This document shows, in pieces, positions 44,087 through 50,322 of a stretch of 64,000 nt of DNA; the first letter of the stretch is position 1; each line of letters starts with the position of its first letter. Where the stretch lies: assembly GCA_958414825.1 (NCBI GenBank), contig CATYXQ010000004.1:8667-72666 (forward strand), given 5' to 3'. Under the pieces are notes generated by a model. The model had not been told where the DNA came from and made no database searches. It saw only the letters and a program-made list of their open reading frames with translations. The translations under genes were made by a program, and so were the position numbers. The stretch comes from an uncultured Eubacteriales bacterium. Lineage in GTDB: Bacteria; Bacillota; Clostridia; Oscillospirales; CAG-272.

Positions 44087-45037
44087 TTAAGATTTTTTTA
44101 CGTAAAACGGCCTCGAAGTAGATTCTTTAAAATAAGCCGTCAAATCCGTTTCAGGATTATCCTTCACAAAATCCTTTATCTGAAAGCTTTTGCGCGTCTG
44201 GGATTTCCAAGTCACGATATATCCGCCGCATGTTCCGTGTTCGCTCTCTTTCAGGTCGGATTTGATCAGATTTTCAATCTCGCTTATCCGGTTATCAATC
44301 GCTTTTTTTTGCGCTTTAAGACCTGCATATTCTTCGAGCACGCTTTCACGCCCGAAGAGTTCAACCGTGCCGTTCATGCTGTCTGTATAGAGCGTGGACA
44401 AGGTTTCGGTCGTTGCCTCGCTGCCGTCCGGCGGAGGCGGGGAATCGGGAATCACATAAGAATCCCAAAAATTTTTTTCTGCCTGCATCAGCGCTTCGAT
44501 TTCGGCTTCGTCGCGTTCGAGCGTATAGGTAAAGAACCCGCGCCCGAAGACCAAAACGGCAAGATACCAACGCGCTTTACCTGTCACCGCCAAATAATGT
44601 ACGCATTGAACATAGTATTGTTCGGGAAATTCAATACCGCAAAATTGCTTCACATCCAGCGTGGAGGTTGTTTTGCATTCCAGCCCTGCATCTTCCCCGA
44701 CGATTTCGCGATCAATATCCGCATGTGCAAAAGGATATTTTGCGTTGTAGAGCATAGCGCGCTTACGACGCACTGCTTTTCCGTTCTGTTCGCAGAAACG
44801 GCGCGCTACATATTCCTCAAGGTCGCGTCCGATCCGCATGGCTTCGTTATCTGGCTTGTCCGGCAATCGCCCTGTTTTGTCTGCCCATATACTGAATCGG
44901 GAACTGTATTTTGACAAGCCCACAATGCCGGATGCGTCGCTGCCTCCGATCGTTTTTCTCCTTTGTGAGATCCATTCTTCTCGGCTCATATCTTTCGTAG
45001 ACACAGCGTGTATGTTCCCCTTGTCAAAACGCGCCAT
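44087..45037 (-). CDS. YqaJ-like viral recombinase exonuclease
   Basis: ORF track lists 44087..45172; I prefer the ATG at 45037 (MARFDKGN...). Motifs: TIGGSDASGIVGLSKYSS, HADIDRE, GLECKTT. Confidence 0.85.
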   Translation of the reverse strand: MARFDKGNIHAVSTKDMSREEWISQRRKTIGGSDASGIVGLSKYSSRFSIWADKTGRLPDKPDNEAMRIGRDLEEYVARRFCEQNGKAVRRKRAMLYNAKYPFAHADIDREIVGEDAGLECKTTSTLDVKQFCGIEFPEQYYVQCVHYLAVTGKARWYLAVLVFGRGFFTYTLERDEAEIEALMQAEKNFWDSYVIPDSPPPPDGSEATTETLSTLYTDSMNGTVELFGRESVLEEYAGLKAQKKAIDNRISEIENLIKSDLKESEHGTCGGYIVTWKSQTRKSFQIKDFVKDNPETDLTAYFKESTSRPFYVKKS

Positions 45038-45299
45038 AGTCCGCAAGCCTCCCGTCCTCGTATGCCCATTCTGCGGCGGCGTCTCTCGTCTCCGCCGCCT
45101 CTCGCAGATCGAGCAGTTCACAAGCTTCTTCTTCGAGCAGATCAAACATCCCTTTGATGTTGTGGAAATCAAGCTCCATCATTGCCTCTTTGACAATATG
45201 CAGCGTCTGCTCGCACGACGCTTCATATTCCCGCTCCTTGATCTCAAGCCGCTCGGTAAGCGGCAATTCCCGCTCTGGCGGAAGTTCAGCATAAAACAT
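45024..45299 (-). CDS. Acidic hypothetical early protein
   Basis: ORF track. 91 aa and strongly acidic. Confidence 0.5.
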   Translation of the reverse strand: MFYAELPPERELPLTERLEIKEREYEASCEQTLHIVKEAMMELDFHNIKGMFDLLEEEACELLDLREAAETRDAAAEWAYEDGRLADYGAF

Positions 45300-45305
45300 T
45301 TTTCA

Positions 45306-46271
45306 TTACTCCCCGATTTTTTTAAGCGCAAAGTTCCCGGAATGTATGATCTGTTTGCGATACCGGTCTATGATCAAGCCATTATCCTGTACAACGGCTT
45401 TGTCAGTATTTGCCCACTCCATAACACCCGATGTTATCACTGTCGCATTGCCGCGGATGTTCTCGACTGTTGCACTGTCGCAGATGCGCTCGACTGTTGC
45501 ACTGCCGTAGATGCGCTTGACTGTTGCATTGCCGCAGATGTACTCGACTGTTGCATTGTTGCAGATGCGCTCGACTGTCGCATTGTCGTAGATGCGCTCG
45601 ACTGTCGCATTGTCGCAGATGCGCTCGACTGTTGCACTGCCGTAGATGCGCTTGACTGTTGCATTGCCGCAGATGTACTCGACTGTTGCATTGTTGCAGA
45701 TGCGCTCGACTGTCGCATTGTCGCAGATGCGCTCGACTGTTGCACTGCCATAGATGCACTCGACTATCGCATTGCCGCAGATGTACTCGACTGTTGCACT
45801 GCTGCAGATGCGCTTGACTGTTGCATTGCCGCAGATGCGCTCGACTGTTGCATTGTCGTAGATGCGCTCGACTGTTGCATTGCCGTAGATGCGCTCGACT
45901 GTTGCATTGTCGCAGACGCTTATGTTTTGACCGTCTTTGATCCAGTGCCTGCCGCCGTTTACCGTTAAATTATCCTCCCCGATATGTACATGCGCCGCAT
46001 ACCATGTCTTGACTGCTTCGCGCATTCTCGCTTCGTCTGCCTCAGCCACATACCAATCTGGCAATATATCCTGATCTACACGGTATATCCATGTATCAGG
46101 ATTGGTAAATATATCGTTGTCCCTTGGGGATAGCTCTGCGCGTACAAACATCCGTTCCGCGTTTTCGCGCGTATCCTCGATTTTCAGTTCCGCCAGCATT
46201 TCCTGATGGCCGTCATGATCCGGTATGTATACCCGGTCTTTTAAGATGATCCCGCTTTTAAGCCTGCACAT
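45306..46271 (-). CDS. Early protein with a 120-aa N-terminal domain followed by 18 tandem nonapeptide repeats (x-N/S-A-T-V-E-R/Y-I-C/Y)
   Basis: ORF track. The repeats run DNATVERIY GNATVERIY DNATVERIC GNATVKRIC SSATVEYIC ... GNATVITSG. Every other frame over the repeat is also open (shadow ORFs). Confidence 0.7.
   Translation of the reverse strand: MCRLKSGIILKDRVYIPDHDGHQEMLAELKIEDTRENAERMFVRAELSPRDNDIFTNPDTWIYRVDQDILPDWYVAEADEARMREAVKTWYAAHVHIGEDNLTVNGGRHWIKDGQNISVCDNATVERIYGNATVERIYDNATVERICGNATVKRICSSATVEYICGNAIVECIYGSATVERICDNATVERICNNATVEYICGNATVKRIYGSATVERICDNATVERIYDNATVERICNNATVEYICGNATVKRIYGSATVERICDSATVENIRGNATVITSGVMEWANTDKAVVQDNGLIIDRYRKQIIHSGNFALKKIGE
45426..45911. repeat. Tandem 27-bp repeat array (18 units) with a 135-bp higher-order duplication
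   Basis: The unit is about GCAnTGnCGnAGATGCGCTCGACTGTn on the plus strand. A block of more than 100 nt starting near 45480 recurs near 45615, an offset of 135 nt or 5 units. Confidence 0.9.
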
Positions 46272-46515
46272 GTTGGTTTCTCTCCTTTGAATTTCTCCAT
46301 GCCATATTCGGGAAATATACCCGAACCGGATAACTTTTTGAAATTGCCGCCAGCGCGCCGAAGAAAAGCTCGCGCTTTGGGTATAGCTTTACAATGCCGC
46401 TGGAGGGATTCAAATACCCTATGAGGTACGCCGCCGCCATACCGTTCCGGTATGCGCATATGCGGTACCGCATCGCTCCGATTTCCGCGCATATCCGATA
46501 TTCCACGCCGCTCAT
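46258..46515 (-). CDS. Hypothetical early protein
   Basis: ORF track. Its ATG is preceded by AAAGGAGAG. Preferred over the overlapping 46241..46618 ORF, which is Arg/Gly-rich. Confidence 0.5.
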   Translation of the reverse strand: MSGVEYRICAEIGAMRYRICAYRNGMAAAYLIGYLNPSSGIVKLYPKRELFFGALAAISKSYPVRVYFPNMAWRNSKERNQHVQA

Positions 46516-48758: not shown

Positions 48759-48803
48759 ACAATCAAATGATTGCAAAGTCAACCGATTTCAATCATTTGA
48801 TTG
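48759..48803. promoter_or_regulatory. Two copies of a 14-bp palindromic operator candidate (CAATCA-NN-TGATTG)
   Basis: CAATCAAATGATTG (48759-48772) and CAATCATTTGATTG (48790-48803) are each followed by CAA. They lie between the divergent starts at 48698 and 48843. Confidence 0.5.
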
Positions 48804-48842
48804 CAATTTGGACATTTGCATAATTTTAGCGGAGGTATTTTA

Positions 48843-49211
48843 GTGAAAGTTGATAGAATCAAATGTCTTGCGAAAGAGCAAGGCATTTCGCTTAAATTTT
48901 TATGCAATAAAATAGGCAAGCGCCGCACGTATATAGGAGAAATTGAAGCGAGGAATGGTACGATTTCGCGGGAAGACCTTGCTGTTTTAGCCGACGTTCT
49001 TGACACCACGCCCGAATACCTCCGAGGGGAGACGGATATAAGAGCAAAAAACCCTCTTCTGCAAAAAATCGAGCAGAAGAGGAAAACGTCCTGTTTAATA
49101 TTGGATTATCACAGCGAGACCGGCGAGCCGGAAGTTATTGACATTGCGCCGGAAAATGTGGAAAAAGTCAAAGAGTATGTAAGATTGCTAAATAACGACA
49201 AAAAAGAATAA
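48843..49211 (+). CDS. XRE-family repressor (ImmR-like)
   Basis: ORF track lists 48801..49211. The GTG at 48843 follows GGAGGT. HTH: IKCLAKEQGISLKFLCNKIGKRRTYIGEIEARNG. It is followed by an ImmA-type peptidase. Confidence 0.8.
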   Translation: MKVDRIKCLAKEQGISLKFLCNKIGKRRTYIGEIEARNGTISREDLAVLADVLDTTPEYLRGETDIRAKNPLLQKIEQKRKTSCLILDYHSETGEPEVIDIAPENVEKVKEYVRLLNNDKKE

Positions 49212-49296
49212 ATAAGTGCCGTTTTGTAGAAAATTGTTATCATATTTGTTAAAATCGCTTTGTACTATTTTTTTATACAAAGGAGATTTGGCAGAA

Positions 49297-50322
49297 ATGT
49301 ACAATGTTATTGCGCGCGCCTATGAATTTATTTTGGATAACCATATTCACAAACTCCCCGTAGACCTTACAAAACTGTCGAAAGTATGCAAAGCTTGCCG
49401 CCTGCATTTGATTTCGTACAGTTTAGCGCACGATATGATTTGTACGCTCGGCTGGGAAAAGCATATGCAGTATGACGGTTTTACCGGGACAGCTGACGGA
49501 GACGTTTATATATTGTATCGGGACGCATTGCCTATGGGACAAAAAATGCTGACGATTGCGCATGAAATCGGTCATAACGCTTTAGGGCATATGGATTACG
49601 GCGTCAATCAGCGCAATTTCAAGTGTTCGCCGCTGGAACAGGAAGCGGATCTGTTTGCGCTGTGCTTGCTGGCGCCGCCGTGTATATTGCAGGATTTCGG
49701 CGCGACCAGTATCCGGGATATTCAAATGCTTACATATCTCGACGAAGAAAACGCAAAAACTGCGTTTGACGTCATGGGCGGTTATTTGGGAACCTGTTAC
49801 GACAATAAAGTTGCGCGCTGTTTTCGGTCGCAATCCAAATCCAAAAGTTGGAGCGGTATATACATGTGTATTATCGCCGCAAGCGTCGTTATCGCCGCGA
49901 GCTTAATGTTAGCCGTATATGCAGCCAGGACACATTACGGCTACGGCGTGTTTACGCAGCCGGCGGAAACAATTGCCGGAGCGCAGCTTGCCGACGATGC
50001 ATCGGCTTCGATTGACGTCCTCGTTTCTCTGCGCGCTCGTATGACGGACAAGCGGTTTGTTCAAACCAGCGCGCCGCAAACCGAAAAAGCGTCCGTGATA
50101 ACGGACGCGCCGGATGAAAGGCCGGATGAAAGAATGAAAAATCCCACGGCAGCAATAGAAACCGTTTTGTCCGGGCAGGGCGAGACAGTCTATGTTACAC
50201 ATGCGGGGGATAAATACCATAAAGCGGGATGCCGGTATATAAAGAACAAAGACGCCGCTGCATGGACAATATCAGACGCACAGAACAGCGGAAAGACGCC
50301 GTGCAGCGTGTGCTATAAATAA
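49297..50322 (+). CDS. ImmA/IrrE-family metallopeptidase with a TM segment and a C-terminal Cys-rich (YH..C...PC..C) module
   Basis: ORF track lists 49216..50322. The ATG at 49297 follows AAAGGAG. Features: HEIGHNALGH, a TM segment (IYMCIIAASVVIAASLMLAVYA) and the C-terminal GDKYHKAGCRYI...TPCSVCYK. Confidence 0.8.
   Translation: MYNVIARAYEFILDNHIHKLPVDLTKLSKVCKACRLHLISYSLAHDMICTLGWEKHMQYDGFTGTADGDVYILYRDALPMGQKMLTIAHEIGHNALGHMDYGVNQRNFKCSPLEQEADLFALCLLAPPCILQDFGATSIRDIQMLTYLDEENAKTAFDVMGGYLGTCYDNKVARCFRSQSKSKSWSGIYMCIIAASVVIAASLMLAVYAARTHYGYGVFTQPAETIAGAQLADDASASIDVLVSLRARMTDKRFVQTSAPQTEKASVITDAPDERPDERMKNPTAAIETVLSGQGETVYVTHAGDKYHKAGCRYIKNKDAAAWTISDAQNSGKTPCSVCYK

Follow-up and report, generated by a model that had tools for sequence, protein, structure and literature searches.

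The DNA stretch analyzed here, referred to as the window, comprises 64,000 nucleotides (nt) of contig CATYXQ010000004.1 from an uncultured Eubacteriales bacterium of the lineage CAG-272 and contains, as judged from its sequence, a prophage early operon. The gene at 45306–46271 on the minus strand of this operon encodes a protein of 321 amino acids (aa) that features a conserved head starting with Met-Cys, a predicted regular β-solenoid of 18 nonapeptide units, and a small C-terminal cap. The protein belongs with the β-solenoid repeat proteins of early phage regions—a known but uncharacterized kind—and is set apart by the conserved Met-Cys head, which has not been described before. Favored, although tentatively and at somewhat less than even confidence, is a function as an early protein interacting with the host or its defense, in which the conserved head would serve as the unchanging functional module and the rod as a surface or spacer that is rapidly reshuffled.

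The open reading frame (ORF) is complete, with the stop codon at 45306–45308, and homologues span 98–100% of its length. A Shine–Dalgarno sequence, AAGGAG, is located at 46282–46287 on the same strand, 10 nt 5′ of the ATG. Based on the AlphaFold2 model and the alignment of homologues, residues 1 to ~98 (45978–46271) form the α/β head, and residues 283 to 321 (39 aa; 45309–45425) form the C-terminal cap with the strands 299–302 and 307–310. The cap carries the motif K-x-I-I/Y-Q/H-A/S-G-x-F/W in 110 of 121 close homologues. In between, residues 99 to 120 (45912–45977) carry irregular first strands in the model (108–112 and 117–119), which link the head to the solenoid, and the array of 18 units of 27 base pairs (bp) covers residues 121 to 282 (45426–45911), all on the minus strand. 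An earlier note on this DNA had described a 120-aa N-terminal domain followed by 18 nonapeptide units at 45426–45911; both the ORF and the in-register unit count agree, and the repeat feature is confirmed as real and as correctly described there, save for a detail of charge.

Tandem Repeats Finder detects a single array at 45439–45916 with a period of 27, 17.7 copies, 85% matches, and zero indels. Read in register, it consists of 17 canonical units and a degenerate 18th and last unit, GNATVITSG. The unit consensus is x1-N/S2-A3-T4-V5-E/K6-R/Y7-I8-C/Y9, with A3, V5, and I8 as the core, a conserved T4, and variable positions 1, 2, 6, 7, and 9. At up to 3 mismatches, the consensus unit occurs in 12 copies, every one of them within the array, with 0 expected by chance. 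The codon choice in the array is narrow: V5 is always encoded by GTC, T4 almost always by ACA, and I8 almost always by ATC. At positions 1, 7, and 9, in turn, 4, 7, and 5 different amino acids are seen. Several units are identical in their DNA (7, 11, and 16; 8 and 13; 9 and 14; 10 and 15), and the longest exact repeat measures 113 bp and occurs at 45476–45588 and 45611–45723 at an offset of 135 bp. Hence, the 135-bp higher-order duplication that had been noticed earlier is real, its two copies of five units each lying at 45476–45723 (minus strand). The net acidic charge per unit claimed alongside it is inaccurate: E6 is mostly paired with R7, so that the array is nearly neutral, with a net charge of only −4 over 162 residues. 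The whole protein has an isoelectric point (pI) of 5.18 and a net charge of −3.4 per 100 aa. Long ORFs also run through the array in other frames or on the opposite strand, namely 44838–45968 (plus strand, 376 aa), 45403–45759 (minus strand, 118 aa), and 45437–45751 (minus strand, 104 aa); these are artifacts because the repeat is stop-free, and they could mislead gene callers.

The fold was predicted with AlphaFold2. From the single sequence, residues 125 to 270 are modeled at a predicted local distance difference test (pLDDT) score of 80 to 97 with one strand per 9 residues, and when 121 aligned homologues are supplied, confidence extends to the entire protein, at a mean pLDDT of 96.1 and a predicted template modeling (pTM) score of 0.88. 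The model features the α/β head, a few irregular strands, 18 regular strand–turn units, and the C-terminal cap; the strands within the units are five residues long. The secondary structure of the head consists of a β-strand at 5–10, α-helices at 22–28 and 35–40, β-strands at 42–48 and 62–65, and a long helix at 76–94. The β-solenoid that the earlier note had suggested is, hence, borne out by the prediction, and disorder, which had been named as the contrary outcome, is refuted by the confident model. As an indirect test of the number of units per coil, the lag autocorrelation of the variable positions was calculated over 99 arrays; it is flat, with no correlation between neighboring units at any lag. 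Two Foldseek searches against the PDB gave no significant match (best E 0.045 and 0.72, TM ≤0.28), and Foldseek against BFVD gave one real match, to an uncharacterized member of the family encoded by a metagenomic siphovirus. Searching the PDB by sequence, with the single protein, a full-length profile, and a head-only profile, yielded nothing significant.

At the level of the repeat, the protein matches the Pfam family PF18836 (B_solenoid_ydck, the YdcK β-solenoid repeat) with 94.9 bits and an E-value of 5.2e-28 in six stretches, membership being defined as a whole-protein score at or above the gathering cut-off of 30 bits. The majority of close homologues carry this family as a precomputed annotation. 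The earlier statement that the repeat can be placed in no known family is, thus, formally wrong at the repeat level; its companion, that the repeat is neither a pentapeptide nor a hexapeptide one, holds, with a period of nine and no pentapeptide, Hexapep, or left-handed β-helix (LbH) match in Pfam. A search of genomes with the 17-position PF18836 profile gave no match anywhere, control genomes included. Two phage-borne groups of repeat proteins with no assigned function, PHROG 7964 and PHROG 5070, match residues 99 to 225 (E 2e-7 and 4e-6), and this match covers the repeats only. The models of DUF7666 and YdhT gave no match for the protein in the Pfam and NCBIfam scans.

The supposed kinship with YdcK proper is not borne out, and membership in its family was rejected. 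The protein reaches no NCBIfam cut-off, that of the YdcK family proper (NF040481) included, on which YdcK of Escherichia coli as a control scores 559 bits (cut-off 350). BLASTP between the two proteins gives E = 0.2, hhalign of the 121-sequence profile against YdcK gives a probability of 0.5%, and no YdcK structure is found among the Foldseek PDB matches listed. YdcK of Salmonella/E. coli, with the structure 2F9C, has been described as a trimeric LpxA-like protein (PMC4372379). E. coli YdcK reaches 38.5 bits on PF18836 and matches, in addition, the LbH, hexapeptide, and—weakly—bactofilin models. Both proteins are β-solenoids of unknown function, and what they have in common is the short motif I-[YC]-G-[ND]-A-x-V; YdcK is an irregular protein of the left-handed-helix type without an N-terminal head, whereas the protein studied here is regular and carries one. 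In the literature, no paper was found that mentions PF18836, B_solenoid_ydck, or DUF7666, and YdcK was found only as a modeling template.

Further repeat folds were considered and rejected. A left-handed β-helix or hexapeptide protein is not indicated, with no Hexapep, LbH, or GlmU-type match and the LbH protein DapD reaching only E 2.2 in Foldseek; this fold does not fit because the strict equivalence of the 9-residue units stands against three 6-residue faces per 18-residue coil. Pentapeptide repeat proteins need a period of five, the pattern A(D/N)LxX, and a quadrilateral helix, whereas the period here is nine and no Pfam match is found. Their DNA-mimicking members (MfpA, Qnr, and AlbG) are likewise rod-shaped β-solenoids, which bind a host enzyme; the fold matches to AlbG and MfpA have E-values of 1.8 to 3.4 and TM <0.2. 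The RTX β-roll (GGxGxDxUx) shares the nine-residue period and the short strand per unit, but the units of the window protein lack the Gly/Asp calcium-binding consensus (GGxGxD), and no Pfam RTX match is found; moreover, RTX proteins are secreted, whereas the window protein is cytoplasmic. The bactofilin family PF04519 is not listed for the protein at E up to 10.

The N-terminal ~100 aa, overlooked by the earlier note, are the conserved and family-defining part of the protein. Searched alone against 1.84 billion representatives, residues 1 to 105 retrieve 883 clusters (50% identity) at E up to 1e-3, so that the family comprises at least 883 clusters; full-length relatives number at least 938. 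The matches nearly always begin at residue 1, and 123 of the 148 members listed start with Met-Cys. Across diverse members, M1, C2, S6, W61, Q67, D68, P71, and W73 are invariant, and K5, H22, D33, F42, E46, P49, D66, and W90 are conserved at ≥90%. One and the same head is joined to 9-mer arrays, to 8-mer arrays (e.g., D-N-S-T-V-x-A-Y), or to other repeats, such as the M-R-x-S-S-x-V-type units of the relatives P0188 and P0194; the relatives with 8-mer arrays match no Pfam family and fall below the PF18836 cut-off. For the head domain, no Pfam match at E up to 10, no PHROG match, and no significant Foldseek neighbor were found, and the head-only profile reaches a best E of 1 against the PDB. The invariant Cys2 suggested the N-terminal folds with a Cys nucleophile, SRAP/YedK and the Ntn hydrolases, as a lead; these were rejected, having no Pfam match and no representative among the Foldseek matches listed, in addition to the PDB profile result, and the length of the head of only ~98 aa is a further argument against such a fold. 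In a different arrangement, the relative P0260 carries the head (minus its first ~24 residues) fused to a DUF6273 domain and has no repeat array. Phage L007, which has a member of the solenoid family, encodes a separate DUF6273 protein within its lysogeny module (1566–2990), and DUF6273 and the head domain may be functionally linked.

The array evolves differently from the rest of the gene. In the close 9-mer set, the number of units varies from ~3 to 22 with a median of 13, and differences in protein length between homologues are multiples of 9 aa far more often than expected. The three closest phages have 18 (window), 15 (L004), and 13 units (L074), in line with the copy-number variation that had been considered probable. 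L074 and the window are identical over ~1.45 kb except for three substitutions and a clean 135-bp deletion (45589–45723), which corresponds to one higher-order copy. L004 differs from the window in the array at 60 of 405 positions (14.8%) and by an 81-bp indel; outside the array, the mismatches are 3/399 for the upstream region, 9/360 across the head, 4/117 across the tail, and 12/276 within the following gene (0.75–4.3%). Of the 60 array mismatches, 50 fall on codon bases 1 or 2 and 43 on the unit positions 1, 7, and 9. Over 1517 units of the family, the entropy is 0.22 to 0.70 bits at positions 3, 4, 5, and 8 and 1.3 to 2.4 bits at positions 1, 2, 6, 7, and 9; T4 is conserved at 91%, position 6 is E in 49% and K in 41%, and the array charge ranges from −16 to +7. 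The units, hence, share a very recent common ancestry (concerted evolution)—in agreement with the recent expansion read earlier from the near-identity of their DNA—combined with amino-acid diversification at a few positions. The arrays are also systematic breakpoints in public short-read assemblies of gut prophages (loci L013–L057 and L076–L155): 17 of the first 45 genome loci break off no more than 30 nt from the matched portion of the gene, and the same holds for many viral contigs, which substantiates the assembly risk that had been attached to the array.

The order of genes in the window is a Cro-like helix-turn-helix (HTH) gene, small ORFs, the solenoid gene, a 91-aa ORF, a YqaJ/RecE-like exonuclease, RecT, an HTH protein, SSB, and a replication initiator, so that the early-gene position upstream of a recombination module proposed before is found again here. 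The same slot after a Cro-like gene is occupied in other phages, with different modules downstream: Sak in L004, DnaN and a methylase in L006, RecT and a helicase in L007 and L009, DUF3799, SSB, and ERCC4 in L011, and an AAA domain protein with an SNF2-type helicase in Dulem virus 35, a complete circular phage. The context in L010 is atypical. Among bacteria, the family occurs in metagenome-assembled genomes of Oscillospiraceae, Acutalibacteraceae, Ruminococcaceae, and Lachnospiraceae and in a small number of their cultured strains; cultured carriers of a relative include Anaerotaenia torta DSM 100431, Eubacterium plexicaudatum ASF492, Roseburia sp. 1XD42-69, and Mediterraneibacter hominis NSJ-55. 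At least 206 IMG/VR contigs carry a family member. Of 61 genomes related to the host, just 2 have the gene, and plasmids gave solely repeat-level matches to unrelated proteins. This sporadic, phage-borne distribution is the pattern expected of phage cargo.

The reading as an early host- or defense-interaction protein rests on the early slot of the gene, its sporadic occurrence on phages, the set of conserved polar residues in the head, and the diversification of the rod at specific positions. A temperate phage of gut Clostridia would produce the protein early during its lytic cycle, as an accessory protein located in the cytoplasm. The constant α/β head of ~98 aa, starting with Met-Cys, carries the conserved polar cluster of C2, K5, S6, H22, D33, E46, and D66-Q67-D68 and would act as the invariable module, either as an effector or for binding. 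In the rod, each 9-residue unit contributes one predicted strand, with A3, V5, and I8 in the core, and the small cap lies at the C-terminal end. The rod evolves by gain, loss, and reshuffling of 27-bp units while head and cap stay almost unchanged, and the amino-acid changes fall almost only at the presumably exposed positions 1, 6, 7, and 9. Such a rod may engage a host or defense component that itself varies, making the protein an arms-race protein of the host-takeover or counter-defense class. A bolder version of this proposal, which is rather improbable, takes the head as a new small enzyme or covalent-capture module (with Cys2 at a free N terminus after Met removal, His22, and D66-Q67-D68) and the solenoid as a variable recognition rod, driven by recombination independently of reverse transcriptase, that aims the head at fast-evolving host defense proteins; together, they would form the phage counterpart of a variable-receptor system, widespread in phages of gut Clostridia.

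Several observations weigh against the host- or defense-interaction reading. Among the PADLOC defense models, PDC-M11B alone is matched, weakly (E 0.0014, 16.6 bits) and without any single stretch passing, and no paper was found that mentions the family. No conserved partner gene is present, none of the neighboring small ORFs being kept beyond the closest phage L004, and phage L012 carries the gene after replication genes and a methylase and not before them. Unit shuffling and gene conversion, rather than selection on a binding surface, could account for part of the excess in amino-acid changes, and the exposure of the unit positions is deduced from conservation and the strand pattern. In addition, the copy numbers stem from short-read assemblies, which can collapse arrays, and the relative P0122, with the equivalent of about one unit, would make the rod dispensable if its contig is assembled correctly.

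The main competing explanation, which we consider unlikely, holds that only the head matters—e.g., as a small enzyme with a free N-terminal Cys, after Met removal, and His22—and that the array is a tolerated, slippage-prone stalk or oligomerization rod with near-neutral variation. The head is, indeed, the sole part common to all relatives, P0122 keeps head and cap, the unit number ranges so widely without apparent constraint, 8-mer and 9-mer array types are interchangeable, and the variable positions are uncorrelated between neighboring units. The pattern of change in the array, however, is non-neutral, with the mismatches concentrated on codon bases 1 or 2 and no synonymous change in the core codons; frame and A-T-V-x-x-I core are kept across all 1517 units, the members with short arrays may be collapsed assemblies, and for the head no known enzyme fold was found. 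That the rod instead self-associates or polymerizes like the bactofilin-type solenoids, thereby organizing the downstream recombination or replication machinery as a scaffold, is quite improbable. Such a role would suit the usual position of the gene just upstream of recombination or replication modules, the weak match of E. coli YdcK, which shares the repeat motif, to the bactofilin model, and the conserved T4, which is flanked by core residues and would line the rod as an unchanging, exposed stripe if the assumed orientation is right. Against it stand the missing bactofilin match of the window protein itself, the position of the gene in L012, and the hypervariable surface, which is unexpected for a scaffold; a specific partner is, moreover, unlikely because the neighboring modules (RecT/YqaJ, Sak, DnaN with a methylase, and DUF3799 with ERCC4) are unrelated to each other.

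The acidic solenoid acting as a DNA mimic that inhibits restriction enzymes or other DNA-binding defense proteins, as the earlier note had speculated, is very unlikely because the array is nearly neutral. The elongated rod, the early-gene position, the mildly acidic pI of the whole protein, and the presence of AlbG and MfpA among the weak fold matches would be in keeping with it; yet none of the fold matches is significant, position 6 is almost as often K as E in the family, the array charge reaches positive values, and the adjoining 91-aa ORF is far more acidic (−17.6 versus −3.4 per 100 aa). A DNA-mimicking anti-restriction protein of the Ocr/ArdA type was rejected as well, the dense DNA-like negative charge of these proteins being absent in the array. 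Hardly credible is an action of the array at the DNA level, as iterons or an array of binding sites, or its diversification by a diversity-generating retroelement (DGR). The tandem array does lie in a replication-proximal region, and the variable codons 1, 7, and 9 are nearly all NNC or NNT, resembling the mutagenesis of AAC codons. In relatives, however, the pattern at the protein level persists although the DNA differs and even the period can be 24 bp instead; the frame is always kept, and length differences in multiples of 9 aa are in excess. A DGR is not the cause of the variation because the 96%-complete genome contains no reverse transcriptase (RVT_1)—a control search works—and the window contains no template copy outside the array; when the whole genome was searched at the protein level, the gene was found only once. 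The length of 18 units could, finally, be an assembly artifact with a different true number, e.g., 13, which is a fairly small risk. The genome assembly consists of 91 contigs, a single contig is the only recorded source of the 18-unit protein, L074 is identical save for one 135-bp higher-order copy, and arrays of this kind break many assemblies. Then again, the longest exact repeat of 113 bp can be resolved by 150-nt reads or large k-mers, collapse shortens arrays, whereas the window has the longer form, and the L074 contig, at 1.68x coverage, is more likely than the window to have collapsed; the frame is uninterrupted, and gene and architecture stand either way.

The genes around the solenoid gene add to the picture of the operon. 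Upstream, an 85-aa ORF at 46258–46515 (minus strand), which is 100% identical in the sister phage L004 and has no PADLOC match, overlaps the start of the solenoid gene with its stop by 14 nt; because of this overlap, the two are probably translationally coupled. Between the solenoid gene and the YqaJ exonuclease lies the 91-aa ORF at 45024–45299 (minus strand), with a net charge of −16, a pI of 4.26, and 27% D+E. None of Pfam, PHROG, and PADLOC gives a match for it; it is 96% identical in L004 and absent from more distant contexts, where unrelated small ORFs are found. By charge and position, this ORF would be a better candidate for a DNA mimic or a nuclease inhibitor (Gam-like) than the solenoid. 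Directly beyond it, a mosaic junction is present at ~45010–45040 of the window and ~7154–7180 of L004: the two phages are nearly identical up to about the first seven codons of the next gene (MARFDKG...) and diverge fully from there on, into the YqaJ exonuclease and RecT in the window and into an 80-aa ORF and a Sak-type annealing protein in L004. Judged by this alignment, the recombination module appears to have been swapped between the two phages, with the breakpoint just inside the gene start. On the other side of the early operon, at 48801–50322 (plus strand), an HTH repressor-like gene is followed by a gene whose 368-aa product contains an M78 peptidase domain of the ImmA/IrrE type. A pair of an HTH repressor and an ImmA/IrrE-type protein is the usual SOS-independent switch of mobile elements of the Firmicutes.

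To our knowledge, rod-like repeat proteins are common among early phage genes, and we know of none with a known function. The solenoid protein of the window provides a clean and tractable example of this kind: its model is very confident, its conserved head lies outside the protein-family libraries and solved structures, and the differences between sister phages are nearly confined to rod length and to putatively exposed residues of the rod. From a practical point of view, the arrays are frequent breakpoints in metagenome assemblies of prophages. If the rod is, indeed, a re-dealt recognition surface, it would represent a mechanism of diversification that needs no retroelement, and the family would then be a likely source of new counter-defense or host-takeover activities in the phages of the human and animal gut.

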